A DNA stretch of 64,000 bases from Candidatus Hydrogenedentota bacterium (lineage in GTDB: Bacteria > Hydrogenedentota > Hydrogenedentia > Hydrogenedentales > SLHB01). Of the stretch, positions 7,666-44,739 are shown in pieces (within the stretch, counting starts at the first letter, position 1; every line of letters starts with the position of its first letter). The stretch spans positions 2,721 to 66,720 of the forward strand of contig JARKSN010000276.1 in assembly GCA_029974275.1 (NCBI GenBank), written 5' to 3'. Both the position numbers and the translations under genes were made by a program. The notes under the pieces are model-generated. The model ran no database searches, had not been told where the DNA came from, and saw nothing but the letters and a program-made list of their open reading frames with translations.

Positions 7666-8106
7666 CTATCGCCCCTGAGAACGTTCGTATTCCGCGGAAA
7701 CGGAGCTCGCCAAGCCCCCGCGCGGGTTGCACGCGATGACCACGCTCATGCGCACCGGATCACACGCACGCACAAGGTCTTCGAGCATGCGATTGACAAG
7801 ATGTTCGTACCAGATTCCGACATTGCGATAACTCATGAGGTAATATTTCAGCGACCGCAATTCGATGCATTTCGCGTGAGGCGTATACGTAATGGTCACG
7901 CGCGCAAAATCGGGAAGCCCCGAAAACGGACATACCGAAGTGAACTCGTCCGTCGTCGTGACAACATCGATGGCGCGCCCGCGATACGCATACTCAAAAC
8001 ATTCGAGACAACGCGTCTCAATGGCCTCCGGCCCCTGAAAGGGAACCGATTTGTCGAGCGCTTGGAAGGCGTCGCGGACCTTGCTCGGAGCATCTTTCTT
8101 CTTCAT
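7666..8106 (-). CDS. queF: NADPH-dependent 7-cyano-7-deazaguanine (preQ0) reductase, unimodular type
   Basis: FTSVCPFSGLPDF contains the catalytic Cys and ELRSLKYYL is the QueF motif; the size (~146 aa) fits the unimodular type. The start at MKKKDAPSK (8106) lies 20 nt after the stop of the upstream radical SAM gene. The longer listed ORF would overlap that gene. Confidence 0.88.
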   Translation of the reverse strand: MKKKDAPSKVRDAFQALDKSVPFQGPEAIETRCLECFEYAYRGRAIDVVTTTDEFTSVCPFSGLPDFARVTITYTPHAKCIELRSLKYYLMSYRNVGIWYEHLVNRMLEDLVRACDPVRMSVVIACNPRGGLASSVSAEYERSQGR

Positions 8107-8126: not shown

Positions 8127-9533
8127 TTATGCCCACAGCGCGGCGCGCAAACGAAGAAGCGTCCGGAACATGGGTTCCGTAAGCCCCTGCTCGCGGCGAA
8201 GCTTCTCGGCGGCGCGGACAAGCTCGGGGGGCGGCGTGATCTCCGAAGCGCGCAAGCAATTAGGGCGCAACGACAAACATTCATCCATGAAATGGGTCAT
8301 TCGATCGCCCGGCACGAGCGGAGAAGCGTAAAAACACGGATTGAGCATAGGCTGATCGCACGGGATCACGCCCTGCTCGACGGCAATCGCATGAAGCCGG
8401 GTGTTGGGATAAATCCGAAGCCCCTGCGCGACATGAACAAGGTCCACCGGCGCAATGCACGCGTCGATGAAATCAAACGTTTCCTGGATGGTTTCTTCAT
8501 TTTCCCCTGGCCCGCCAAACACGAAAAACCACATCGTCGGCATATCGTGCGCCCGAATCAACGCGGCGGTCTGCCGCAACGCATCGAGCGTGAATCCCTT
8601 CCGCATCCCCTGCAACGTCCGGGGCGAAGCGGCGTCGGGCGTGCAATCGATCTGCACAAAACCAGCCGCCTTCATCAAATCGAGCGTCTCGCCCGTGACG
8701 CCCATCGGGTTGATGCCCATCGATCGCAGCCGAACCTGCAACCCCCGGCGCACGATCTCGCGGCACACATCCTCCAGCAACCCTGCCGGAGCGTTCAACG
8801 TCGAGTCGACGAACTCGAACATGACATCGCCGATCCGATCACGCGTTTCTTGCAGTTCATCCACAATGCGCATCACGGATCGCACGCGATAACGCCCCCC
8901 CTCGATGGCCGGATACGTGCAATAAACGCACTCGCGGTCACAGCCCCGTTTCATTTGCAGCGAATACGCCCCCTTGGACCGGTACGGCGTAAAATCGATC
9001 CAGCTATCCAGACGCGGAAACGGCAGCGCGTCCGGATCCAGCGCGATCGCGCCAGCCGCCGCCCCCCTGCCTCTGCCCGACACAACCCGCGGAATGGAAG
9101 TCGCATCCGCGCCCGCGTCGAGCGCGCGCAACAATGCGGGAAACGCCGCCTCCCCCTCCCCGGCCACGCCAAAATCCGCCCCGAGCGCCTCCATCACTTC
9201 TGGCGCCAAAATCGTGAAACCCGCCCCCCCAAGTATCATCGGAGCCCCAGTGCAACTCCGGATGGGCTCGACAACCTGGGCGCGGATGGCGTCCAGGTAA
9301 TACTGCGGCCGCTCCATCGTTACATTATCGATGTTCCGAATGCTGAGCCCCACATAGTCCGGCCTGAAATCCTCAGTCGCCGCGACCAAGGCCGCCACAT
9401 CCCCCTGTAGACCGTCGAAAACGCGCACCTCGTATTCGTTCGCGACGGCATGGGCGACGGAACACAGTCCGATCGGGGGAATGGGATACGGCGCGGTGAC
9501 CGTGTTGGTGTTGATCAGCAGAACTTTTTTCAC
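8127..9533 (-). CDS. B12-binding-domain radical SAM enzyme
   Basis: The N-terminus is Rossmann-like (MKKVLLINTNTVTAPYPIPPIGL, then DYVGLSIRN), as in cobalamin-binding domains. The CDRECVYC sequence is the CxxxCxxC radical SAM cluster motif. The GTG start at 9533 overlaps the carrier-protein stop (GTGA). Confidence 0.88.
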   Translation of the reverse strand: MKKVLLINTNTVTAPYPIPPIGLCSVAHAVANEYEVRVFDGLQGDVAALVAATEDFRPDYVGLSIRNIDNVTMERPQYYLDAIRAQVVEPIRSCTGAPMILGGAGFTILAPEVMEALGADFGVAGEGEAAFPALLRALDAGADATSIPRVVSGRGRGAAAGAIALDPDALPFPRLDSWIDFTPYRSKGAYSLQMKRGCDRECVYCTYPAIEGGRYRVRSVMRIVDELQETRDRIGDVMFEFVDSTLNAPAGLLEDVCREIVRRGLQVRLRSMGINPMGVTGETLDLMKAAGFVQIDCTPDAASPRTLQGMRKGFTLDALRQTAALIRAHDMPTMWFFVFGGPGENEETIQETFDFIDACIAPVDLVHVAQGLRIYPNTRLHAIAVEQGVIPCDQPMLNPCFYASPLVPGDRMTHFMDECLSLRPNCLRASEITPPPELVRAAEKLRREQGLTEPMFRTLLRLRAALWA

Positions 9534-9817
9534 GTGCGCGATGCTTTCCCCTGTGCCGCGATGAATTCGGCGATCGAGTTGACGCTGTATACGACCGTGC
9601 GCGCCAGATTCTGATCATCGATGCGCACGGCATACTTGCTTTGAAGCGCCATCACGATTTCGAGCGCATCCACCGAATCCAACGTAATCTTCCCGGACCC
9701 ATCGAAAAGAGACGCCGCATCCTCAATATCCGCCATCGCCGCATCCGGAAGCGCCAGACACGCCACGATGAGCTCCCTGATTTCGCGCTTCAACTCCGGC
9801 GTCGCCACGTCACTCAT
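9530..9817 (-). CDS. stand-alone acyl/peptidyl carrier protein (phosphopantetheine attachment site)
   Basis: ITLDSVDALEIVMAL matches the carrier-protein DS(L/V)D..E helix-II motif, and the size is ~95 aa. ATG at 9817 (MSDVATPEL) has a purine-rich stretch upstream. GTG 9844 is an alternative start. Confidence 0.8.
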   Translation of the reverse strand: MSDVATPELKREIRELIVACLALPDAAMADIEDAASLFDGSGKITLDSVDALEIVMALQSKYAVRIDDQNLARTVVYSVNSIAEFIAAQGKASRT

Positions 9818-9906
9818 CGCATTTCCCTTTCCATGCAGGCCCACGCGTCATCAGTCCCGGCCCTTGCTCTAACTCAAACACGCCCGAAAAATCCGTCGCC
9901 CGGGAC

Positions 9907-10914
9907 CTACGCAACGACCTTCGCCAGTTCCTGGAACAATCTCTCCTCGGCATCGGCCCGCGCACGAACCATCGCGCTAAGCTCCTCAAGGCGATCGGGC
10001 CCCACATCGCGCTTCTTGCCGGTGCGCGCGGCAAACAGCGAAATCGCGCGCCAGGCGTCGCCATTCTCCATCATTTCCCGCGCCAGACACGCCAGTTCCT
10101 GCTTGCCAAGCACCCCCGCCGCTTCCTGCAAAAACGTCGCATACAGATACCGAAACCCCGCGCCGCCGGTTCCCCGGTCCTCGAGCATCACGTGGATCAT
10201 CATCATCTCATGCGCAAGACGATCAACGCTAACGGCATGCCGAGGCCAATCCAAAAGCTTTTTCGCGAGACGGCGAATGCCCGCCACGCCTAAAAACGGA
10301 ATGGGCAGCCGCAGCATGAAGAAGGCGGCGTGCTTGATCCCCCGTCGAATCGCCTTCTCGATGTCCAAATTCGCGGGAACCTTGCCGACATGATACATGA
10401 ACCCTCTCGGCGCAAATGAACCGCGCGCGAACCGCGCCCGTTCGAGCGTTGCGGCGTCAAGCGGCTTCAACTCCGCGCAATACGCGTCGCTCACCCAATA
10501 AACGCCGTCGCGCTTTCCGGCCACCGTCACAAAATGCCCATTGAAATGCGCCCGCGAATACGGCGGCACATAGTCCATATAAAAAAAATCCACCTGCACC
10601 GCCGCAGGCGTTCCCCGCGCGAGAAGCGCATCCAACGCGGCCGATGCCTTGCCCGGATGCCGGAAGCGCCGCCCTGGAAACTCAATGCGCAAATACTTGG
10701 TCAAATAATCCCGAATCTTTCCCGGCTGACTCCGCGCCGTGAACGTAGGGAAAGGCAGCATCCGCGTATCGAAATAACCAAAAAAAATCGCCCCGGCAAT
10801 GCCGAACACCATGGGCTCGGACAACGGCGCGCCCGCGTGACGCAACAAGCCGGCGATCGTGCTGGATTCACAATGCGCCCCAAGCCGATGACAGAAACCC
10901 GCCTCGCTATTCAT
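9907..10914 (-). CDS. BtrH N-terminal domain / DUF4872-like protein (papain/C39-like Cys-His-Asp enzyme)
   Basis: GAHCESSTIAGLLRHAG carries the nucleophile Cys. FNGHFVTVAGKRDGVYWVSDAY supplies His and then Asp. A long helical C-terminal half follows, as in BtrH_N+DUF4872 proteins. ATG 10914 overlaps the upstream stop by 8 nt. TTG 10947 is an alternative start. Confidence 0.75.
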   Translation of the reverse strand: MNSEAGFCHRLGAHCESSTIAGLLRHAGAPLSEPMVFGIAGAIFFGYFDTRMLPFPTFTARSQPGKIRDYLTKYLRIEFPGRRFRHPGKASAALDALLARGTPAAVQVDFFYMDYVPPYSRAHFNGHFVTVAGKRDGVYWVSDAYCAELKPLDAATLERARFARGSFAPRGFMYHVGKVPANLDIEKAIRRGIKHAAFFMLRLPIPFLGVAGIRRLAKKLLDWPRHAVSVDRLAHEMMMIHVMLEDRGTGGAGFRYLYATFLQEAAGVLGKQELACLAREMMENGDAWRAISLFAARTGKKRDVGPDRLEELSAMVRARADAEERLFQELAKVVA

Positions 10915-11377
10915 GGGCGGAAAAAGACTCGGCCCGGGTGACGACAACCAACGGGTTGGCCGTCTTGGCCTGGGTGAGCCGCATTTCAGGGCTGTCCGAC
11001 GTCAGCACCTGAAACAAATTCGCCACCGGAACCCCAAAAACCTCCGCATAGCGTTGCAACATCGGCAGATCAAGCGCCGCAAAACACTCGGGCCGCAGAT
11101 GCTTGCGCAGTCTCCGAACGCTGATCCGCACGCGCGCGGCAAGATCGCCTTCACTCAGGCCAAGCCACGTCATATAATATGCGATTGGGCTGATGCCCCC
11201 CGCACAGAGCTTTTCCAACTCGGATTCCTGGACGCTCCTGCGATGCGCCAGATAATCCGCGAAATAATGAGCCTTCATATACGAACCGGTCTGGATCGGA
11301 CCGTAGGTTCCATCGTCTCGCTCGACGTACAACACAAGCTGGTAATCGTCGTCGACGCGCGCGTCCTCTTCCTTCAT
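10907..11377 (-). CDS. XRE-like helix-turn-helix domain protein
   Basis: The ISPIAYYMTWLGLSEGDLAARVRISVRRLRKHL ... YAEVFGVPVANLF region looks like a Cro/C1-type HTH. ATG 11377 has GGAG upstream. The N-terminal ~60 aa are unassigned. Confidence 0.6.
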   Translation of the reverse strand: MKEEDARVDDDYQLVLYVERDDGTYGPIQTGSYMKAHYFADYLAHRRSVQESELEKLCAGGISPIAYYMTWLGLSEGDLAARVRISVRRLRKHLRPECFAALDLPMLQRYAEVFGVPVANLFQVLTSDSPEMRLTQAKTANPLVVVTRAESFSAHE

Positions 11378-11397: not shown

Positions 11398-12750
11398 TCA
11401 CTCCGGTCTGCGAGCAGTGTAGAACAATGAAACGAACAATGTCACCCCAAAGAACGCCAACAACTTCAGGACATCCGGCAATACGTCCCAAAAGCCATAC
11501 TGCCGCACAAAAATGCCCAAAAATGCGTTCAATCCCCAATTCATCGGCGAAAAAGCGCTGACTTGCTGCAACGCCGCCGGCATCAGGAACGTCGGCACCA
11601 TGATCCCGCCCAACGCCGACGCAATCACCACGATGGTCGCCCCGAACATGGCCGCCTGCTCGTTGCTCCGCGCAAACACGCTGATGACCAGCCCCAACCC
11701 CGTCGCGGCGAGGCCAGACGCCGCACACACCGACACCATCGCGACGTAGTGCGAACCCGGATCAAACGACGACATGCCCAACAGCGGCATGACCGCAACG
11801 CCGATAAGCAACATCATCGCGAACTGAACCGCGCACACGCCCAAATACACCGCTTGCTTGCCTGCAAACAGCACGAACGGACGAACCGGCAGCGTCCGTA
11901 AACGCGTAAGCGTGCCCTGCTGCCTCTCTTGAATCAGACTGCTCGACAGCGGCACGACGATCAGGAACATCGCGAAAAGCGTCCACGCGGGAACATTCTG
12001 TTGTACAGGCGTGGGGACGATGGGCTCCCGGCCCCCTTCGAGATAGACCTCGCGCATGGGAAGCAACGCTTCGTCCGCCCACGCGCGACCCGATAGATCG
12101 ACCAGATCGCCGTTGTCCTCGGGAGCCTCTCCAGACATTTCGGCGGCAAGCGCATCGATTTTCTTCCGGAACGCGTTGCCGAGGGCGTTCACGGTCAACC
12201 CCATCTCGACGCCTTGGGTCAGCCGTTGTAAAGCGTGGAACACGGATTTCCTGTACAGACTGCCCACGGCGGGGTCGAAGCACACCTCCACGCAAAGAGC
12301 GCCCTTTTCCTTGGGCGGCTCATCGCCTTTCCAGGCCGCGTCGTCCTCCGCAAGTTCCTCCTCGGCAAAAGCCTTCTCGATTTCCGCCCGAAGCCGTTGC
12401 TCAAAATGCGCGGACGCATCCTCCGGTATCACCACGCAAACCTGCGCCGCGCCGCGCGTGACCAGCCCACGGGCCGCTCCTTCGTCCAACGCAACGCCCT
12501 TATGGGTCGTAACAAGAAAAAAATCGCCGCTTTCCGCCAGTTTTTCCGCAATGCCCCGCCCAATCGCGCCGGCGTCTCGGTTTACCAACGCCAGCGACAC
12601 CGTGCTCTCGGAAACGGACTGGAACGCCTTGTCCTGTATCATCGTGACAATACAAGCAAGCGCCAACGGCATGAGGAAAATAATCGCCAGTCCTCCCCGA
12701 TCGCGAACGAGAATCAATAGCTCCTTGTATGCCGATGCAAAAAATTTCAT
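11398..12750 (-). CDS. ABC-2 type exporter permease
   Basis: Topology is typical of ABC2_membrane_3 proteins: an N-terminal TM helix (LAIIFLMPLALACIVTMI), a large extracytoplasmic loop, and five C-terminal TM helices. It lies directly downstream of the ATPase gene. ATG is at 12750; TTG 12762 is an alternative start. Confidence 0.82.
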   Translation of the reverse strand: MKFFASAYKELLILVRDRGGLAIIFLMPLALACIVTMIQDKAFQSVSESTVSLALVNRDAGAIGRGIAEKLAESGDFFLVTTHKGVALDEGAARGLVTRGAAQVCVVIPEDASAHFEQRLRAEIEKAFAEEELAEDDAAWKGDEPPKEKGALCVEVCFDPAVGSLYRKSVFHALQRLTQGVEMGLTVNALGNAFRKKIDALAAEMSGEAPEDNGDLVDLSGRAWADEALLPMREVYLEGGREPIVPTPVQQNVPAWTLFAMFLIVVPLSSSLIQERQQGTLTRLRTLPVRPFVLFAGKQAVYLGVCAVQFAMMLLIGVAVMPLLGMSSFDPGSHYVAMVSVCAASGLAATGLGLVISVFARSNEQAAMFGATIVVIASALGGIMVPTFLMPAALQQVSAFSPMNWGLNAFLGIFVRQYGFWDVLPDVLKLLAFFGVTLFVSLFYTARRPE

Positions 12751-12817
12751 GACCGGCCCCAAAAGGATGCGGCATCGCCGGAAAAAACCTGTTTCCAGGG
12801 AGTTTTCCCCGAAAACA

Positions 12818-13561
12818 TCATTCCCTCAATTCTTTTCCGGTCAATGCCAAAAAAAGCTGGACGAGGCTCGAACAATCTTTTTGCCGCGCGATCAACTCCG
12901 CCGGCTCTCCCTGCGCGATCACCCCTCCAGCGTCGAGAATGGCGATCCGGGTGCACAGCGCTTCCGCTTCTTCCATGTAATGCGTTGTATAGACAATCGT
13001 CGTGCCGGATTGATTGATGGCTTTGAGGTTTTCGATCAGCACGTTGCGCGACTGCGCATCCACGCCAACGGTGGGCTCATCCAACACGAGAATCGGCGGT
13101 TCGCTCAGCAACCCTGCCGCGAGATTCGCGCGACGCTTGACTCCCCCCGAACACTGGACGACGCGGCGCGAAGCGTGCGATTCCAACGCGCCGATATGCA
13201 GGCACCGATCGACCCGTCTCCGGAGATCGCCGCCCCAAAGGCCGCTCATCCGCCCAAAATAATCGAGATTCTCGCGAACGGTCAGCGTCGGGTACAGAGC
13301 AATATCCTGAGGCACAAGCCCCATCCCGCGCGGCATCGTACGCGATTGCCCATCCCAACGTTCGCCGCGCACCTCGACATGACCCGCGGTAGGGCGCAAT
13401 AGCCCGCAGAGAATCGAGATGGTCGTCGTCTTGCCCGCGCCGTTTGGGCCGAGAAGACCGAAAAACTCCCCGCGCGCAACCTCAAAACTCAGATTTTTGA
13501 TTGCAGGACGGCTCGCCCCGGGATAGGTTCGCTCCAATCCTACAACCGAAATTTCGGCCAA
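12818..13561 (-). CDS. ABC transporter ATP-binding protein
   Basis: Walker A GPNGAGKTTT, signature-like CSGGVKRR, and Walker B ILVLDEPTVGVD. A TTG at 13561 is preceded by GAGGGAGGGGG and gives the usual N-terminus (LAEISVVGLERTY). The listed ORF extends to 13648. Confidence 0.88.
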   Translation of the reverse strand: MAEISVVGLERTYPGASRPAIKNLSFEVARGEFFGLLGPNGAGKTTTISILCGLLRPTAGHVEVRGERWDGQSRTMPRGMGLVPQDIALYPTLTVRENLDYFGRMSGLWGGDLRRRVDRCLHIGALESHASRRVVQCSGGVKRRANLAAGLLSEPPILVLDEPTVGVDAQSRNVLIENLKAINQSGTTIVYTTHYMEEAEALCTRIAILDAGGVIAQGEPAELIARQKDCSSLVQLFLALTGKELRE

Positions 13562-14102
13562 GCATCCCCCTCCCTCGCGAAAAAAACGCCTTGCCCGCAC
13601 AAGGACAACTCCCCCCTTCTCCCCCGCGACGCGCCAACCGGGGGTCACCTTTCAAACGAAACGAGGCAATCCGCTAGTCCCGGGTGAAAAAATTACGCTT
13701 CGAGTAATAATCGTCCCGCACAGCGTCGCGAGTGTCGCGGGCCTTTTGCGAAAGCCACGAGGCCGGTTTAGGCAAACAAGGCGATTTCTTGGTGGCGGCG
13801 CGAAGATGCTTCATCCCAATTTTCTCCCAAACTTCCGCGCGCAACCCATATACGCATGTCCATATCCGCGCGCGATAACCATGGACACGGCGATTATACC
13901 GGTATCCCCCCAGAGGCGCAACAAGCAGACAGCGGGAAGACGTCTGGCGCGCCGCCATGCCCTTCGCAACGCAACGGCCCCTTCCTGCTTCCAAAAGGAA
14001 ACTTCCACAACCCTCGCCCCATGTGCTAAAGTGCGAGGCATACGTATCGCGGGACGGATTCCTTCGTCTCGCTGCAACATCAGCTACAAGGAGTCACTGA
14101 TC

Positions 14103-16010
14103 ATGTCTCGACGCTTCCTCTCCTTCACATGCTTGTGCCTTGCCATCCTGGCGATGATGGCGTTGCCAGCCTGTCAGCCTGCTCAGGCTCCCCCCCCCGC
14201 AGAACAATCTCCCGCGCCCGCCGCGCCTCCCGCGCCCGCCGCCGCGCCGCAACCGGCCGCCGAAGAGCCTCCTGCGCCGCAGACTCTGACCGACGTCAAG
14301 ATTCCCATGCGCGACGGCATCGAACTGGCCGCAGACATCTACTTGCCCGCAACGGACGGTCCGCAGTGGCCTACCTTGCTCGTTCGCAGCACCTACGGCC
14401 GCGCCGAAGGCAAAGCCGTCAGCCTTGCCAAAAGCGGCTATGCTGTCGTCGTCCAGGATGTCCGCGGCCTCGGCGGCAGCCAGGGCATCTTCGGGGGGTT
14501 CCGCGACGACGGCTGGGGACCGGATCACGTTGACGGCGCCGACACCGTCCAGTGGATAAAGAGCCAGCCTTGGTGCAATGGCAAAATCGGCACCTTCGGC
14601 ATGTCGGCGCTGGGCATTGTCCAGTCGCGCATGGCCCCCACGACCAAGGACCTGAACTGTCAGATTCCCGAAGCGGCGGCGTCCAGTTTCTACGGCGGGC
14701 TCTCTTACGAAGGCGGCGTCATGCGCAAGGAAATGGTCGAGGGCTGGCTAGGTCTGTTCAAGGAAAAAGGCGGCCTCGACGTGTTGGCCACGTGGAAACA
14801 ACATCCAACCTATGACAGTTTCTGGGGCGACTTCAACGCCGACGCCAAAGCCGCCGATATCACCGCGCCTGCTCTCCATATCGGCGCATGGTACGACATA
14901 TTCTTGAGAGGCACCATCAACTCTTTCCGCACACGCCAGCATGACGGCGGCCCCGGAGCCAAAGGCAACCAGAAAATGGTCATCAAACCAACCGCTCACG
15001 GCGACTATTTACCGGATTTGCCCTACAAGATGAAAAAGAACTTCCAGGATGTCCGCATCACCCCGTTGCGCAACAAGTTCACGGATTTCTGGATGAAAGG
15101 CGTCGGCGAAGTCGACTCGATTCCCGCAGTCCAGTACTACATCATGGGCGACGACACGGCCCCCGACGCGCCGGGCAACGAATGGCGCACCGCTGACGAT
15201 TGGCCTCCATTCGTGACAGCGGGAAGAACCTTCTACGCGACGCTCGAAGGCGCCCTCGTGCCCGAACGCCCCCAGAGCGCGCCTGCCAAGTTGACCTTTG
15301 TCTACAACCCCGCCAATCCATTCCCGACGAAGGGCGGCGCCAATCTGACCATTCCCGCCGGCCCCTATGACCAGCGCGACGTCAACAAAGGCCGCAACGA
15401 TCTGATCACGTTCGCCACGGCTCCGCTCGAAGCGCCTGTCGAAGCGACAGGACGCGTCGTAGTCCGGTTGTACGTCTCCACCGACGTCCCGGACACTGAT
15501 TTCACCGCAAAACTCGTGGACATCTATCCCGAAGGCGATGGACGCGAAATCCTCGTTGCGGACAGCATTCAACGGCTGAAATTCCGCCACGGCTTTGAAA
15601 AGGCCAACCCCTTGCCCATCGGCTCGATCGGCCTCATCGAGATCGACCTCTGGCATATCAGTTGGGCCTTCCACAAAGGCCACAAAATCGGACTCCAGAT
15701 ATCGAGCAGCAATACCCCGCGCTTCGAAATCAACCCCAACACCGGCGCCGATTTCCCCGGCGAAGAAACGCGCATCGCCAACAACACCGTCCATATGGGC
15801 AAACTGCACGCCAGTTGCCTGATTCTTCCCCAAAAAGGCGATGCCTGGGACACCGATTACGACGGCATCCAAGACGATGAGGAAGTTCGCTTGGGCACCG
15901 ATCCGCACCAGGCCGATAGCGATAAGGACGGCCTTATCGACGGCGACGAAGTCCTCATCTTCAAGACCGATCCCATGAAGCCGGACAATTTGCTGAATCC
16001 AGGCGCCTAG
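14103..16010 (+). CDS. CocE/NonD family (X-Pro dipeptidyl-peptidase S15-like) hydrolase lipoprotein with C-terminal Ca-binding Asp-rich repeats
   Basis: AAGGAG lies before ATG 14103. MSRRFLSFTCLCLAILAMMALPAC is a signal/lipobox-like sequence followed by a Pro/Ala linker. Family blocks are LLVRSTYGR, VVVQDVRGLGGSQG and GTFGMSALG (nucleophile elbow), plus a PepX_C-like C-domain (HKIGLQISSSNTPRFEINPNTG). The tail carries DTDYDGIQDDEE and DSDKDGLIDGDE. Confidence 0.88.
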   Translation: MSRRFLSFTCLCLAILAMMALPACQPAQAPPPAEQSPAPAAPPAPAAAPQPAAEEPPAPQTLTDVKIPMRDGIELAADIYLPATDGPQWPTLLVRSTYGRAEGKAVSLAKSGYAVVVQDVRGLGGSQGIFGGFRDDGWGPDHVDGADTVQWIKSQPWCNGKIGTFGMSALGIVQSRMAPTTKDLNCQIPEAAASSFYGGLSYEGGVMRKEMVEGWLGLFKEKGGLDVLATWKQHPTYDSFWGDFNADAKAADITAPALHIGAWYDIFLRGTINSFRTRQHDGGPGAKGNQKMVIKPTAHGDYLPDLPYKMKKNFQDVRITPLRNKFTDFWMKGVGEVDSIPAVQYYIMGDDTAPDAPGNEWRTADDWPPFVTAGRTFYATLEGALVPERPQSAPAKLTFVYNPANPFPTKGGANLTIPAGPYDQRDVNKGRNDLITFATAPLEAPVEATGRVVVRLYVSTDVPDTDFTAKLVDIYPEGDGREILVADSIQRLKFRHGFEKANPLPIGSIGLIEIDLWHISWAFHKGHKIGLQISSSNTPRFEINPNTGADFPGEETRIANNTVHMGKLHASCLILPQKGDAWDTDYDGIQDDEEVRLGTDPHQADSDKDGLIDGDEVLIFKTDPMKPDNLLNPGA

Positions 16011-16048
16011 CCGAATAGGCTCAAGACCGACAGTGGCCGTACGCAATA

Positions 16049-16104
16049 GACCGCGAGTCCATGAACAGATCGGCAACGATTCCATGGGCTCGCGGTTTCT
16101 CTTT
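16049..16104 (+). terminator. candidate intrinsic terminator after the first CocE/NonD gene
   Basis: GACCGCGAGTCCATG (16049..16063) pairs with CCATGGGCTCGCGGT (16082..16096) with one mismatch. The stem is followed by TTCTCTTT. The loop is large (18 nt), so confidence is modest. Confidence 0.4.
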
Positions 16105-16503
16105 GGCGACTTCTTCGCTTTGATGACGGCGCGTATTTGAATTGCGGCCCCATGAAATCGCCCGCGCAGAAGGCCAGCCCACATATCAGAACAACGCCGA
16201 CGCAACACCTTTGTTTCAAGCACATTGCAAAGCCATTCCAAATTCCGAAACTTCTGTACTCCCAATCCGGAATGTGCTATTCTCAATTCCGATAGTTATG
16301 ATCTCGTCCCCGAAACGATCTAGGACGGATCGGCGGTGAATGTCCCGCAGGCGCACGCACGCAGCGGCACAGGAAGAGTCGCCGTTCGTGGGATGGCGCA
16401 ACGTGGAAAGTCGCCAATCGAAACCCTTAGGGGTCGAGCGTACGGGATTTTCGAAGCATTTCGAGCGGCAAAAACCTACAATTCAGGGAGAGGCACGATC
16501 GTG

Positions 16504-19032
16504 ATGAGACTGTTTATCTTGTTTGCTAGCACGCTTCTGGCCTGCGAGATGGCCTGGTCCGCCCACACCAAGATCACGACGTCCGTGCCAATGACCGACG
16601 GCGTTCAACTCAGAACCGACGTCTACACGCCGACCACGGGGGGGCCTTCCTTCGCGGTCATCCTGGAACGAACCCCCTACGATCCGGCTTCAGCAGGCGC
16701 CACCACATGGACGGACCAAGGCTATATCTACATTTGCCAGACGGTCCGCGGACGTTACGGAAGCACCGGAACCTTCCGTCCATTTGCCGACGACGGGTGG
16801 GGCGATCACAAAGACGGGGCCGAAACCGTCGATTGGATATTGGGACAGCCCTGGTGCAATGGCAAAGTGGCCACCTACGGAGGTTCCGCCAACGCCATCA
16901 CGTCCGTCCGACTCGGCGCCGCCTCGCAAAAACTGGTCTGCCAAGTCTTCCAGGAAGGCGGAACCAATTTCACCGATCACCTGACCTACCAAGGCGGCGT
17001 GTACCGGCAGGGGCTTTGCGATGGCTGGCTGACCTATGGCGTGGGAACGCCCAGCTACAACGAATGGCGGCAGCACCTGCCCAGCGATACGGCGTTTTGG
17101 AGCTTTTACAATGCCGAGGCGCGGGCGCCGCTCGTGACGGCTCCCGGCATGCACGTCGGAGGCTGGTGGGATATCTTCGCGCGCGGCACCATCAGCAACT
17201 TTGTGCAACGTCAATACCTGGGCGGCCCCGGAGCCAAAGGCAATCAGAAATTGTCCATGCGCCCCACGACCCACGGCGGGTGGGGCCCTGCGGGAGAATT
17301 CGTGCGCGCGCCGAATTTCGAGGATTTCAGGGTCACCCCGCGCCGTAGGGACTTCGCCCGTTACTGGCTGCTAGGCACGCCCAGCGCCTACATGTCGGAA
17401 CCGCCCGTAAGCTACTACATCGTGGGGCCGGACACCGATTACACCCTGGGATGGCAATATCGGACTGCGGACAAGTGGCCCCCCTTCCCGCCCAATGAGA
17501 CGCCACACTATTTGACGCACGCGGGCGCCTTGGAGACATCCGTGCCCGCTAGCGGTTCTCGCACCTACACCTTCAACCCATATAACCCGGCGCCGTCGCT
17601 GGGCGGGCAGGAATTGACCCTGCCCTCGGGCCCCTTCGACCAACGCCCCGTCAGCAACCGATCCGACATATTGAAATTTGAAAGCGCCGCGATGACCACT
17701 CCGCTCGAAGTCACCGGGCATTTCAAGGTTCGCTTGTTCGTCTCCTCGGACGCGCCCGACACGGATTTCACGGCCAAATTGGTGGATGTCTATCCCGCGC
17801 CAGACGGACGCGAAATTTTGATGCTGGATAGCATTCAGCGAGTGAAATACCGGCTCGGCAACGACCAGCCCCAACCCGCGCTGCAACCGGGACAAGTCGT
17901 CGAGATCACGATTGATCTGGGAGACATTAGCTGGATGTTCGCGACGGGCCACAAGATTGGGTTGCACATTTCGAGCAGCAACAGCACGCGTTTTCAGGTG
18001 AACCCCAACACCGGCGAAGACTTTCAGACCGGTTCCATGCGCGTCGCCCAAAACACGGTTCACATGGGAGGCGTATATGCCAGCGCGCTGCTGCTGCCAC
18101 AGCGCACGCCTTCGGTGGACACGGACAACGACGGGTTCACGGACGAACAAGAGTGGAACACGCCCAATGGCGACATGGACAACGACGGCATCACCGACGC
18201 CGAGGAATACTTCGTGTTGGGAAGCAACCCGCGCGTCGCCGGCATCGTGCTCGCCACCATGACGCTCATCCATGCCGTAGACGGTTCCAACGTCGATGTC
18301 ACGTTTTCCCGCCCTGTGGGACCCTCCGCCTTGGCGCCGGCCAATTACCTTCTTTCCGGATCAGGGAAAGGGACTATGGCCGACCATCCCCATACCGTCA
18401 CGCGACAACAAAATTCCAACGTGTACCGTTTGACATGGAACGCCGGCGAAATGCGCACGGGGGGAGATATCACCATCACGATATCCAATATCCTCGATGA
18501 AAATGGACGCGGCCTCCTGGCTCCGTACTCGCGGACCGAAGTGGGCACCGCCATGGGCGTGGCTCCCACCATCCTGCTCAAACCGACCGTGCCGAAAATA
18601 ACCAGCCTGTGGCCCATCCAGGTCGCCGCCGTTTTGTCGGAGCCCTTTGCCGATATGGGGCCGCATTGCCTCATGTTGACCAACGCAACCGTCAGCGACT
18701 TCGTCGTGAACGGCCTCGACGTCAACTTTTCGCTCTGGCCCAAGGCGAACGGAACCGTAACGGCGGTCGTCCCGGCCAACATCGCCCACGATCTCGCCGG
18801 CAACGCCAACACCATATCCAATACCCTGGTGCATGAGTTCCTGAAGGTCGGCGGCGATCTGGACGGGAATGGCGAGGCCGATGCGGTGGACGTTCAGTTG
18901 GCGATCAACAGCGCCCTGCGTCTTCCCGCAAACGTCGACGCCGATGTCAACTGCGACAAAGTCGTCGACATCGTCGATGTGCAGCTCATCATCAACGCGG
19001 CCTTGCGGTACAACGTGCAACTCTGTAAATAG
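16504..19032 (+). CDS. CocE/NonD family hydrolase with Asp-rich Ca-binding repeats, Ig-like region and C-terminal dockerin-like module
   Basis: MRLFILFASTLLAC is a signal peptide. It is a paralogue of 14103..16010 (GPGAKGNQK, HKIGLHISSSNSTRFQVNPNTG). Repeats are DTDNDGFTDEQE and DMDNDGITDAEE. The terminal GDLDGNGEADAVDVQLAINSAL ... DADVNCDKVVDIVDVQLIINAAL is a two-segment dockerin-type repeat. GTG 16501 is an alternative start. Confidence 0.88.
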   Translation: MRLFILFASTLLACEMAWSAHTKITTSVPMTDGVQLRTDVYTPTTGGPSFAVILERTPYDPASAGATTWTDQGYIYICQTVRGRYGSTGTFRPFADDGWGDHKDGAETVDWILGQPWCNGKVATYGGSANAITSVRLGAASQKLVCQVFQEGGTNFTDHLTYQGGVYRQGLCDGWLTYGVGTPSYNEWRQHLPSDTAFWSFYNAEARAPLVTAPGMHVGGWWDIFARGTISNFVQRQYLGGPGAKGNQKLSMRPTTHGGWGPAGEFVRAPNFEDFRVTPRRRDFARYWLLGTPSAYMSEPPVSYYIVGPDTDYTLGWQYRTADKWPPFPPNETPHYLTHAGALETSVPASGSRTYTFNPYNPAPSLGGQELTLPSGPFDQRPVSNRSDILKFESAAMTTPLEVTGHFKVRLFVSSDAPDTDFTAKLVDVYPAPDGREILMLDSIQRVKYRLGNDQPQPALQPGQVVEITIDLGDISWMFATGHKIGLHISSSNSTRFQVNPNTGEDFQTGSMRVAQNTVHMGGVYASALLLPQRTPSVDTDNDGFTDEQEWNTPNGDMDNDGITDAEEYFVLGSNPRVAGIVLATMTLIHAVDGSNVDVTFSRPVGPSALAPANYLLSGSGKGTMADHPHTVTRQQNSNVYRLTWNAGEMRTGGDITITISNILDENGRGLLAPYSRTEVGTAMGVAPTILLKPTVPKITSLWPIQVAAVLSEPFADMGPHCLMLTNATVSDFVVNGLDVNFSLWPKANGTVTAVVPANIAHDLAGNANTISNTLVHEFLKVGGDLDGNGEADAVDVQLAINSALRLPANVDADVNCDKVVDIVDVQLIINAALRYNVQLCK

Positions 19033-42108: not shown

Positions 42109-43840
42109 AGCGGGAATGTGGAACCTTGCATGGGCGGAGTGGTTGATTGAGGAACTCGTCCGTCAGGGCGTGGGGGCTTTCTTTATCTCGCCGGGATCGC
42201 GATCGGCCCCCCTGACGGCCGCGGCGGCGCGCAATCCACGCGCGCGGACATTCGTCCACTTCGACGAACGCGGCGCCGGCTTCGCGGCAGTCGGCTTTGC
42301 CAAGGCCGCGGGACGTCCCGCAGCCCTCATCGGCACATCGGGCACGGCGGCGGCAAACTACTTTCCCGCCATCGTTGAAGCGTCCCAGTCCCACACGCCC
42401 CTCCTGATCATCACGGCCGATCGTCCGTCGGAACTGATCGACGCCGGAGCAAACCAAACGATCGACCAAACACGGCTGTACGGCGCATACCCGCGGTGGC
42501 GCGCCGATATGCCATGTCCCTCACCGGACGTTCCTGCGGAATATGTGTTAACGACCGCCGCGCAAGCCGTCTACCGCGCCACGCGCCCTCCCGCCGGGCC
42601 CGTGCATCTGAACTGCCGGTTCCGCGAACCGCTGTTGCCGGACACGCCCCTGTCTACTCCCGCTTCCCTCGAAACCTGGGCATCACAGGGGCTGCCCTAC
42701 ACGCACTACCCTGCGGCGCCGCAGCACCCCTCGGACGCAGCGCTGGATGCACTGCAATCGGCAATTGCCCCCGCGCGACGCGGACTGCTCATCGTGGGCG
42801 CGTTGAACTCCCGCTCCGAACGCGATGCCGTGCGCGAAGTGGCGCAAGCGCTGAACTGGCCCACCTTCGCCGATAGTACGTCGGGACTACGCCTCGGCAA
42901 CCCCCAGCCTCCGTTTGTTCCTCAGTATCCGCTGCTTCTCGCCGGCGATTTCTTGTCGCGCGCCCCCAAGCCGGATGTCGTCGTGCATATCGGCGGCCCG
43001 ATCACGGCGAAACGCCTTCAAACCTACTTGCGAGACGCGCACCCGCCAATCCACGTGCGAGTGGCGGCGCATCCAAACCGCGTCGATCCCGATCACGGCA
43101 TTACCCTGCGCGTCGAAGCAGGCATCGAGCACACCTGCCAAGCAATGGGGCGAATGCCGATCGCATCCCCGGACATGGATTGGGCTACGTCGATTTTCGC
43201 GGCCGCCGCGCAGATAGAACGCTGCGTGGACGAATGCTTCGCACAAAACCATTCGCTCAGCGAGCCCGCCGTGGCTCGCCTCCTCTCGCGGCATCTCGCG
43301 GAAGACGCCGCCCTCTTCCTCGGAAATAGCATGCCGATTCGCGATATGGACACGTTTGCCTCGCCGCACGGCGCGGAGGTCCCCGTCTTTGCCAACCGGG
43401 GCGCGAGCGGCATCGACGGCAACGTCTGCACGGCGGCGGGCATCGCGCTGGGGTTGGGGCGCCCCGTCACCGCCGTGATGGGCGATCTCGCGTTGCTGCA
43501 CGACATCAACGGCTTGGCCCTGCTGAAGCAAACCCCGGTCGTGCTGGTCGTGCTGAACAACAACGGCGGCGGCATCTTCCATTTCCTGCCCGTTGCGAAA
43601 CACGCCGACATCTTCGAGCCGTTCTTTGTCGCCCCGCACGGCCTGCGCTTCGAGCACGCAGCCCGAATGTTCGGCATCGAGTATGCCGCGCCCACGGACG
43701 CGACGCAGTTTGCCCAAGCCTACGCCCACGCGATCCAGAAGCGAGTTGGCGCCATCATAGAGGTGCAAACGATCGCCGCCGAGAACCTGCGGACGCACAC
43801 GGCGCTGGAGGGGAGCGTCCGCCGCGCCGGAAAAGAATGA
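42098..43840 (+). CDS. menD: 2-succinyl-5-enolpyruvyl-6-hydroxy-3-cyclohexene-1-carboxylate (SEPHCHC) synthase
   Basis: ISPGSRSAPLT, GTSGTAAANYFPAIVEA, LIITADRP and the ThDP motif NRGASGIDG....VLNNNGGGIF. The start overlaps the menF end by 11 nt. Confidence 0.93.
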   Translation: MPTEAGMWNLAWAEWLIEELVRQGVGAFFISPGSRSAPLTAAAARNPRARTFVHFDERGAGFAAVGFAKAAGRPAALIGTSGTAAANYFPAIVEASQSHTPLLIITADRPSELIDAGANQTIDQTRLYGAYPRWRADMPCPSPDVPAEYVLTTAAQAVYRATRPPAGPVHLNCRFREPLLPDTPLSTPASLETWASQGLPYTHYPAAPQHPSDAALDALQSAIAPARRGLLIVGALNSRSERDAVREVAQALNWPTFADSTSGLRLGNPQPPFVPQYPLLLAGDFLSRAPKPDVVVHIGGPITAKRLQTYLRDAHPPIHVRVAAHPNRVDPDHGITLRVEAGIEHTCQAMGRMPIASPDMDWATSIFAAAAQIERCVDECFAQNHSLSEPAVARLLSRHLAEDAALFLGNSMPIRDMDTFASPHGAEVPVFANRGASGIDGNVCTAAGIALGLGRPVTAVMGDLALLHDINGLALLKQTPVVLVVLNNNGGGIFHFLPVAKHADIFEPFFVAPHGLRFEHAARMFGIEYAAPTDATQFAQAYAHAIQKRVGAIIEVQTIAAENLRTHTALEGSVRRAGKE

Positions 43841-44739
43841 CGCCGATGTCCAAAGCGCTGCCGTTATTCTTCAAGGAATATGGAAATCCGAAACATCCCG
43901 CCGTCATGTTGCTGCACGGTTTTCTGGGAAACGCCAACGATTGGATCTCTGTCGCAGAACGCTTCGCGGACGCGTTCCATGTCGTCACGCCCGATCTGCC
44001 CGGGCATGGAAGGTCCCTGCTGAACGATCCGGACGCGATCTACGATATCCCGCTCACCGCAACATCCCTCTTACGACTGCTCACTGCGCTCGACATCCAC
44101 CGCTGCGCCGTGGTCGGATATTCGATGGGCGGACGGCTGGCGCTCTACATGGCCATCACGCACCCGAACCGCATACGCGCCGCCGTCATCGAATCCGGCA
44201 CGCCCGGCATTGCTTCGGAAAGCGAACGCGCCGCGCGCCGCGCCCACGATGCGGCCCTCGCCCTGGAGTTCGAGAAGGAAAGCCTTGCCGAAGTCCTCAC
44301 GCGCTGGTACGCCCGGCCGCTGTTCGACTCGCTCCGACGTCACCCGCGTTTCGAGGAACTGCTCCAAACACGCTTGACCAACGATCGGTTGGAGGCGGCG
44401 CGAGCGCTGGTCAATCTCGGCGCAGGAAGCCAGCCCAATCTCTGGCCCTCCCTGCCCGAGCATACCGTCCCCACGCTGATGCTCGTTGGCGAGCACGACG
44501 CTCGTTACATCGACATCGCGCGCGCCATGACAGCGCAATCGCCCGCAATCCGCATGGAAATTGCGTCCGGCGCCGGACATAACATACACTTCGAAGTTCC
44601 CGAGGCGTTTGTGCAAAGCGTCCGCGCATTTCTCGAAAATGTATTGCGGGATCGCCCAGCGCAGCCCCGTCTTTCGCGATACAATGGCATGTCTGACGGA
44701 ACCTCGGGATCCTTAACCTGTAAAAGGAACCAACGATGA
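43837..44739 (+). CDS. menH: SHCHC synthase (alpha/beta hydrolase)
   Basis: [23 protein letters not shown] (nucleophile elbow) and GAGHNIHFE. The operon position is between menD and menB. ATGA overlaps occur at both ends. Confidence 0.82.

Follow-up and report, generated by a model that had tools for sequence, protein, structure and literature searches.

Organisation of the locus

We analysed a 64,000-nucleotide (nt) stretch of DNA from a Candidatus Hydrogenedentota bacterium (assembly GCA_029974275.1, contig JARKSN010000276.1, positions 2,721 to 66,720; this whole stretch is called the window below), in which two neighbouring minus-strand genes encode a 95-residue acyl carrier protein (ACP; 9530..9817) and a 468-residue B12-binding radical S-adenosylmethionine (SAM) enzyme (8127..9533). 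The pair closes a tight six-gene operon on the minus strand, where it is preceded by genes for the ATPase of an ATP-binding cassette (ABC) transporter, an ABC-2 type permease, a DarG-like small protein and DarH, a BtrH-related acyltransferase. A scan of one genome per species found relatives of the enzyme in at least 393 species of anaerobes, mostly within large clusters that also include FabF and a DarB-like ketosynthase, and the 80 best loci were fetched for comparison.

An earlier note on this DNA had reported that the carrier and radical SAM genes share their stop and start, and this is borne out by the coordinates of the open reading frames (ORFs) and by the sequence. Minus-strand ORFs run at 8127..9533 (468 residues, GTG start) and at 9530..9844 (the ORF of the carrier), and direct reading of the minus strand from base 9533 to base 9530 gives G-T-G-A (9530..9533), such that the GTG at 9533-9531 starts the radical SAM gene, the TGA at 9532-9530 stops the carrier gene and three bases are common to both. 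The GTG start is backed by homologues, VKKVLLINTNT in the window aligning with MKKVLLVNTNT from column 1 in an alignment with 120 relatives, and the ATG start of the carrier at 9817, which yields the 95-residue protein, agrees with the N-termini of 14 homologous carriers. The note had also taken the overlap to imply stoichiometric co-expression, which a 4-nt overlap does not demonstrate: such overlaps are ordinary in this same window, two consecutive ones lying at 43837-43840 and 44736-44739. The overlap is kept in one of four homologous cassettes (locus L012), with gaps of 5, 23 and 27 nt among the other three (L011, L032 and L028). A four-base overlap is routine operon architecture and adds little alone.

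The carrier is a divergent acyl carrier protein

In profile searches, the carrier scored just below the gathering cut-off of the Pfam PP-binding family (PF00550, 20.1 bits against 20.8) and below that of the NCBIfam ACP model NF006617 (46.3 bits against 70). Its sequence, ITLDSVDALEIV, contains the D-S motif, with the predicted attachment residue, Ser48, in LDSVD, and this serine is invariant among 15 homologous carriers. The AlphaFold2 (AF2) model (pLDDT 84.8) has four helices (residues 7-21, 48-62, 69-75 and 79-93) and places Ser48 at the N-terminus of helix II. In a fold search with this model the top matches were all ACPs, the first being holo-ApeE (9ls6; TM 0.79/0.86), which superposes with an rmsd of 1.7 Å at 32% identity over 87 columns. 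The carrier is a divergent ACP with a marginal Pfam miss, and the model makes the 95-residue protein a credible one: the modifiable serine in a four-helix ACP fold, whose absence the earlier note had named as fatal to its proposal, is present.

The radical SAM enzyme belongs to a sister subfamily of TIGR04072

The radical SAM protein matches the B12-binding domain PF02310 over residues 10-135 (56.7 bits) and the Radical_SAM domain PF04055 over residues 195-356 (76.2 bits), both above their cut-offs. The motif CDRECVYC corresponds to C198-x3-C202-x2-C205, and all three cysteines are invariant in 120 sequences. No SPASM-type cysteine cluster was seen in the protein; the other conserved cysteines are isolated, C257 being invariant and C426 kept in at least 90% of the same 120 sequences. 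Sequence and predicted fold place the enzyme in class B (cobalamin) of the radical SAM proteins, with one CxxxCxxC motif and predicted cofactor binding, and the N-terminal B12 domain, single motif and lack of SPASM clusters described in the earlier note are upheld by the Pfam matches, the motif and the survey of conserved cysteines.

Among NCBIfam models, the best match was TIGR04072 ('lipid biosynthesis B12-binding/radical SAM protein'), at 329.3 bits and thus under the cut-off of 360, followed by BzaD (TIGR04385, 154.1 bits against a cut-off of 450); the TsrM family (TIGR04428) gave 118.7 bits against 500. BchE, HpnR, HpnJ, PhpK, AprD4 and the methylases of ribosomally synthesised and post-translationally modified peptides were all far weaker, with HpnR, HpnJ, BchE, PhpK and AprD4 below their cut-offs. 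Firm placement in a known family with a carrier-independent function, which the earlier note had also named as refuting its idea, was not found, as the enzyme is below the cut-off of every NCBIfam family of known function that was compared. A Spirochaetota orthologue likewise scored 310.5 bits against TIGR04072, and a true member in Bacteroidales 423.8 bits. The enzyme is thus a member of an unnamed sister subfamily of TIGR04072, for which the only roles so far proposed concern non-methylating ladderane chemistry (PMC2649909; PMC13459092); public annotations of relatives about 50% identical to the window's enzyme read merely 'radical SAM protein'.

The subfamily is marked by a conserved basic C-terminal helix, EPMFRTLLRLRR (residues ~453-468; window 8127-8180, minus strand), with E453 and P454 invariant and with at least 90% conservation across 120 sequences at each of M455, F456, R457, L459, L460, R461 and R463. 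Weaker relatives from the same phylum match profile positions ~3-430 of 470, without the C-terminal tail. The helix could serve as a membrane anchor or as a docking site for the acidic ACP. Separately, some weaker radical SAM matches in related genomes (for example G061, G066, G024, G018 and G038) run through one or two in-frame TAA or TAG stops near their ends, which may be gene boundaries or frameshifts.

Relationship to TsrM and predicted active site

A profile of the enzyme family searched against the PDB ranked TsrM (6wte; E 9e-48) first among solved proteins, and TsrM was also the best Foldseek match of the enzyme's AF2 model (pLDDT 93.9; TMq 0.82), followed by AprD4, MgmA, OxsB, CysS and TokK. 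We compared, through a hidden Markov model alignment, three TsrM residues highlighted in a 2026 review (PMC12931638). R69 of TsrM, the arginine under the cobalamin, corresponds to Arg66 in the enzyme, and at least 90% of 120 homologues keep it; Thr245 takes the place of Glu273, which in TsrM serves as fourth ligand to the cluster; and Glu236, a polar residue between the cofactors, is replaced by an invariant Tyr207, tyrosine being the residue of radical methylases at this place. According to the same review, the TsrM glutamate on the fourth iron 'is presumed to preclude radical chemistry', TsrM and BzaD are Csp2 methylases, and characterised class-B enzymes are mostly methylases (PMC12931638). 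The active site is therefore a mixture, which may combine SAM binding at the cluster and radical chemistry with cobalamin presented in the manner of TsrM.

With both Glu273 and Glu236 missing, the polar methylation of TsrM is not simply transferable to this enzyme, and membership of the TsrM family was ruled out on these two replacements together with its score (118.7 bits against 500); BzaD membership was ruled out by its own low score (154.1 bits against 450) and by the lack of bza genes in the neighbourhood. Kinship with TsrM and BzaD makes methylation the best single guess for the reaction, held tentatively and at clearly less than even odds; the absent glutamate and the link to TIGR04072 keep an oxidative or C-C bond-forming reaction in play.

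Genes of the cassette

The four genes upstream of the pair were identified as follows. The first gene of the operon encodes the ABC transporter ATP-binding subunit (12818..13648, minus strand; a maximal ORF whose true start may be later), which matches PF00005 at 106.6 bits and is DrrA/NodI-like in NCBIfam, with homologues in the equivalent position in L011, L012, L028 and L032. It is followed by the ABC-2 type permease (11398..12762, minus strand), which exceeds the cut-offs of PF12698, PF01061 and PF12679 and is likewise kept in the homologous cassettes. The DarG-like small protein (10907..11377, minus strand) reached 50.7 bits in NF053536, below the cut-off of 70, and had no Pfam match; wherever a related locus has DarH, a gene of this type immediately precedes it. 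DarH itself (9907..10947, minus strand; a maximal ORF, with a start perhaps at ~10914) combines a BtrH_N domain (PF14399, 125.3 bits) with DUF4872 (PF16169, 158.3 bits), and its NF053550 score of 300.9 bits lies just at the cut-off of 300.

The carrier follows DarH more faithfully than it precedes the radical SAM enzyme

The related loci belong to anaerobic lineages, namely Bacteroidales, Spirochaetota, Fibrobacterota, Desulfocapsaceae, Rokubacteria, Kiritimatiellia and Myxococcota. The complete order ABC-DarG-DarH-ACP-radical SAM also occurs in L011 and L032 (Desulfocapsaceae), L012 (Rokubacteria) and L028 (Kiritimatiellia). Across the loci in which the ACP was found, it stands after DarH in 16 of 16, and the orthologous radical SAM gene stands after the ACP in 5 of 16. 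The earlier note had described the carrier as dedicated to the enzyme, a claim that does not survive this comparison, as the ACP tracks DarH more faithfully. The known activity of BtrH is ACP-dependent acyl transfer, that is, from the carrier, so that the first partner of the ACP is most simply DarH. The tethered substrate that the note had drawn from the same adjacency is still plausible, yet adjacency alone is no proof of it, as BtrH-type enzymes are established ACP-dependent partners.

Eleven Spirochaetota loci have DarG-DarH-ACP and the orthologue of the enzyme within one cluster, DarG-DarH-ACP lying ~5.7 kb downstream of the orthologue. In 9 of these 11 (L019 17435-18805, minus strand, and eight other loci), the DarH-associated ACP has as its convergent neighbour, within 4-52 nt, the gene of a third B12 radical SAM paralogue, which is weakly HpnJ/TIGR04072-like; B12 radical SAM enzymes of three kinds are thus encoded in those nine Spirochaetota clusters. 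In Bacteroidales, DarH is found outside the ±10 kb loci that were fetched around the enzyme. Extending the search beyond the fetched loci, DarH was present in 10 of 10 further genomes that have the enzyme but have no DarH within 10 kb of it, and in none of 14 control genomes. In a quick maximum-likelihood tree, the five ACP-adjacent radical SAM enzymes, from four phyla, fall near one another and outside a well-supported 65-row clade of Spirochaetota and Bacteroidota; the label 'ACP-adjacent' needs two changes on this tree, on which the window's branch is long, so this picture is indicative only.

A lipid-building core accompanies the orthologues and lies elsewhere in this genome

Neighbour clustering and annotated representatives revealed a conserved core around the orthologues, comprising FabF, a second ACP, a FabD-like acyltransferase, a thiolase-fold ketosynthase (KS) closest to StlD/DarB, two crotonases, a 3-hydroxyacyl-CoA dehydrogenase (HADH) and a YbgC-type thioesterase. 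The core also includes a second B12 radical SAM enzyme, HpnR/BchE-like, whose gene neighbours that of the DarB-like KS in the examples annotated from Spirochaetota and Bacteroidales (L019, L020). In Bacteroidales the clusters additionally encode a phytoene-desaturase-like flavoprotein, a FabA-like dehydratase, an MMPL-acyltransferase-methyltransferase fusion and a GT2/DUF2062 protein. Aryl-polyene/flexirubin clusters, and those labelled 'ladderane' by antiSMASH, have this composition. One complete Bacteroidales chromosome carries a ~55-kb supercluster with the orthologue and with ABC-2-DarG-DarH, after which comes the antisense-ORF signature of the same ACP. The true TIGR04072 member of that chromosome (423.8 bits) directly precedes FabZ-like-DarG-DarH-DarG-DarH-ABC-ABC-2, after which come KS-like genes and an ApeE-like ACP; this stretch, from the TIGR04072 gene on and with its tandem duplication DarG-DarH-DarG-DarH, is in L099 (G004:C1:3932000-3951000) at 13357-18171, minus strand.

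The genome from which the window derives (G000) has a counterpart of this core on another contig, C84 (L096 720-6965, minus strand), where a single operon encodes a second ACP (ACP2), a thioesterase, FabF, a DarB-like KS, a FabD-like protein, a HADH-like protein and a crotonase. The KS is 61% identical to the Spirochaetota one; it scored 133 bits with the StlD/DarB-like model (cut-off 450) and 93 bits with that of DarB proper (cut-off 550). The second, HpnR/BchE-like B12 radical SAM enzyme is encoded on a further contig, C125 (L097 7493-8824, minus strand), such that the pathway is split over at least three loci in this genome.

Among 135 same-phylum genomes, the orthologous radical SAM enzyme, DarH and the DarB-like KS were each found solely in this genome, the orthologous radical SAM enzyme scoring 772 bits against a maximum of 340 in any other. 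Contigs C84, C99 and C125 are compositionally typical, with a GC content of 0.605-0.616 and a tetranucleotide correlation with the genome mean of 0.993-0.997, and on these grounds mis-binning of the contigs that carry core and cassette was rejected. The cassette itself has a GC content of 0.598 and a correlation of 0.955, inside the range of random 6-kb pieces; it thus shows no compositional sign of recent horizontal transfer, though its genes are unique among the 135 genomes, which suggests that either the pathway was acquired as a whole long ago or the phylum is sparsely sampled.

Flanking genes and regulatory signals

Downstream of the pair, 20 nt past the radical SAM stop, lies a gene for QueF (preQ1 synthase; 7666..8106, minus strand), identified by TIGR03139 at 122.8 bits against a cut-off of 86.9. 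A QueF homologue was found in none of the 80 related loci, on which ground we rejected it as part of the module; queF is probably a housekeeping hitch-hiker. Upstream, two tandem S15/CocE-type peptidases with bacterial thrombospondin-type repeats (13746-19032, plus strand) diverge from the cassette and are unrelated to it. There is no ketosynthase near the cassette, and no core gene within ~10 kb. Between the genes of the ABC ATPase and the permease, a gap of 55 nt contains a 12-bp hairpin followed by a T-run (12790-12817, minus strand); a scan of the region for promoters and terminators gave nothing above chance, terminator-like matches being no more frequent than in shuffled sequence.

A proposed cassette for acyl transfer and export in an orphan lipid pathway

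Drawing on the gene identities, the folds, the operon layout and the conservation and co-occurrence of the module described above, we favour the reading that a dedicated six-gene cassette for acyl transfer and export ends in the genes for the ACP and the radical SAM enzyme, and that this cassette would belong to an orphan resorcinol/flexirubin-type ('ladderane-like') lipid pathway widespread in anaerobes; we give this reading as a whole a probability of roughly 55%. Its parts differ in strength. That the genes belong to a resorcinol/flexirubin-type lipid pathway is very probable, and that the substrate of the radical SAM enzyme is tethered to the ACP is a possibility we place somewhat short of even. 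'Ladderane-like' or resorcinol-type clusters with B12 radical SAM genes have been described from many anaerobic phyla, with a product that is not known (PMC9902471). Our literature search found no paper on the enzyme's subfamily or on a B12 radical SAM enzyme joined to DarG, DarH and an ACP.

In the proposed mechanism, the ApeE-like ACP would receive a phosphopantetheine group on Ser48 and would then be charged with an acyl or polyene-type chain. Tailoring of the carrier-bound chain, or else of the resorcinol-type acceptor, would fall to the cobalamin radical SAM enzyme, cobalamin-mediated C-methylation being the likeliest reaction. DarH, as a BtrH-type Cys-His-Asp acyltransferase, would shift the acyl group from the ACP to the acceptor, and the ABC-2 exporter would clear the product. 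Consistent with tethering, the adjacency of ACP and enzyme is kept in one cassette lineage, a B12 radical SAM gene recurs beside the ACP, and CysS and TokK provide pantetheinyl precedents. The earlier note had considered carrier-type substrates rare among characterised B12 radical SAM enzymes; pantetheinyl-linked ones are in fact already known in the class, and the liganded structures of CysS and TokK are among the matches of our fold search.

Several observations weigh against the favoured reading. The linkage of ACP and radical SAM enzyme is loose in most genomes: the two are adjacent in just 5 of 16 loci, and in most loci with an orthologue the enzyme lies kilobases from the ACP. The names TIGR04072, DarG and DarH are themselves annotation by association, and with the DarB-like KS so far under the DarB and StlD cut-offs, the label 'resorcinol' is itself tentative. 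A radical reaction distinct from TsrM-like polar methylation is equally possible. The dispersal of the pathway over three contigs might also be partly an effect of the 342-contig assembly, to which the lack of any core gene within ~10 kb of the cassette runs counter.

The same loose linkage feeds the most serious competing explanation, which we hold to be tenable but less probable than not: the ACP would be the acyl donor for DarH only, the radical SAM enzyme would act on an untethered molecule, such as a resorcinol or cyclohexanedione ring, an ester product or a membrane lipid, and the overlap of their genes would reflect packing. The fidelity of the ACP to DarH (16 of 16 loci, against 5 of 16 for the radical SAM gene after the ACP) and the ~5.7 kb that separate ACP and enzyme in Spirochaetota are as this explanation would have it, as is the situation in Bacteroidales, where the enzyme lies beside the GT2/DUF2062 protein, the MMPL-acyltransferase-methyltransferase fusion and another radical SAM enzyme; the nearest characterised relatives, TsrM and BzaD, act on free small molecules, and four-base overlaps are routine in the window. 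It accounts less well for the five cassettes from four phyla that retain ACP and radical SAM gene next to each other on the same strand, for the other B12 radical SAM gene that lies within 4-52 nt of the ACP in nine Spirochaetota loci, and for the pantetheinyl-linked substrates known in the class from CysS and TokK. A different rival concerns the reaction. The enzyme, instead of being a methyltransferase, could use a 5'-deoxyadenosyl radical for an O2-independent oxidation, cyclisation, aromatisation or C-C coupling of the lipid, with cobalamin as an electron or radical mediator, in the manner of BchE, OxsB or AprD4, or of the proposed cyclobutane-forming role of the ladderane enzyme. We regard this as somewhat unlikely. 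Its best family, TIGR04072, has non-methylating ladderane chemistry as its sole proposed role (PMC2649909; PMC13459092), the SAM-blocking glutamate of TsrM is a threonine here, Glu236 has given way to an aromatic tyrosine as in radical enzymes, AprD4 and OxsB rank high in the structural comparison, and the hosts are anaerobes, for which O2-dependent tailoring is impossible (PMC9902471). However, the place expected for an aromatase, beside the DarB-like KS, is held by the HpnR/BchE-like paralogue instead, characterised class-B enzymes are mostly methylases (PMC12931638), and Arg66 mimics the non-radical cobalamin environment of TsrM.

We also considered that the pair might belong to housekeeping cofactor metabolism unrelated to the Dar-type genes, either through a BzaD-type methylation of benzimidazole for cobamides or, with QueF, in 7-deazapurine metabolism. 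BzaD being the second-best NCBIfam match (154.1 bits) and queF lying 20 nt downstream on the same strand speak for this; but the BzaD score is far under its cut-off of 450, there are no bza or other que genes nearby, QueF is missing from all 80 related loci and the radical SAM enzyme co-occurs with DarH and lipid genes across phyla, which together make the idea highly improbable.

Within the favoured reading of a lipid acyl-transfer and export cassette, a more specific proposal is that a carrier-dependent cobalamin radical SAM enzyme modifies a ketoacyl (fatty-acid or polyketide-type) lipid on the ApeE-like ACP, for example by C-methylation of an electron-rich sp2 carbon through a hybrid of TsrM-like and radical chemistry, before DarH transfers the modified group. 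We consider this proposal unlikely in its full detail. If true, it would give the TIGR04072-related 'ladderane-like' enzyme group its first assigned chemistry; alongside Jaw5 and the proposed ladderane enzyme, it would also count as a second case in which a radical SAM enzyme tailors a ketoacyl lipid. The window's cassette is a compact, one-strand tailoring and export part that is complemented by a short, separate core operon, and is thus a practical start for heterologous reconstitution; its value lies in this handle for assigning a first function to the enzyme group, and not in the overlap of the two genes.

Comparison with known systems

Among enzymes, TsrM (tryptophan 2-C-methyltransferase, 6WTE/6WTF) is the closest solved structure by both profile and fold, with the arginine at the cobalamin common to the two. 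TsrM and BzaD are, however, just 22-24% identical to the window's enzyme, which scores far under the cut-offs of both families; TsrM is ~100 residues longer, and the genomic context of the enzyme is unrelated to thiostrepton or cobamide synthesis. The cobalamin radical SAM methylases CysS and TokK/ThnK have the same class-B fold, and their structures with pantetheinylated ligands set a precedent for carrier-type substrates; they share 16-18% identity with the window's enzyme (TMq 0.65-0.71), their C-terminal domains are larger and they act in other pathways. TIGR04072, the ladderane-cluster type from Kuenenia and from 'ladderane-like' clusters of non-anammox anaerobes, has the same two-domain architecture and similar company (DarG, DarH, ABC and FabZ-like genes); the window's subfamily differs from it in scoring under the curated cut-off and in its conserved C-terminal tail, EPMFRTLLRLRR.

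The best structural match of the ACP, ApeE (acyl carrier protein 1 of aryl-polyene biosynthesis in Acinetobacter, PDB 9LS6), works with aryl-polyene enzymes of the KS/chain-length-factor type, whereas no such genes lie beside the window's ACP. A free-standing carrier next to a BtrH_N-family transferase, as in the window, is also found in butirosin biosynthesis (BtrI/BtrH), but the window is without aminoglycoside genes, and an extra DUF4872 domain puts its protein in the DarH family.

A further parallel is with the dar clusters of dialkylresorcinol, flexirubin and arcuflavin biosynthesis. The Azoarcus dar cluster comprises darA, darB, the conserved hypothetical darD, the BtrH-like darE, an ABC ATPase and permease, the ACP gene darC and a ketosynthase (PMC3949708); NCBIfam now calls the small protein DarG and the BtrH-like protein DarH. 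The accessory genes of such clusters (darD-darE-darF-darI-darC in Azoarcus) hold the small protein, the BtrH-like protein, the ABC pair and the ACP together, as in the window, where the DarG-like protein is below the NCBIfam DarG cut-off and DarH is at its own. In the published aerobic dar clusters DarA and DarB are adjacent, whereas the window's locus is without ring-forming genes and its operon is closed by a B12 radical SAM gene; radical SAM enzymes have zero mentions in the text of the arcuflavin paper (PMC3949708). The cassette is thus a dar accessory block with a B12 radical SAM gene where the ring-forming genes would be.

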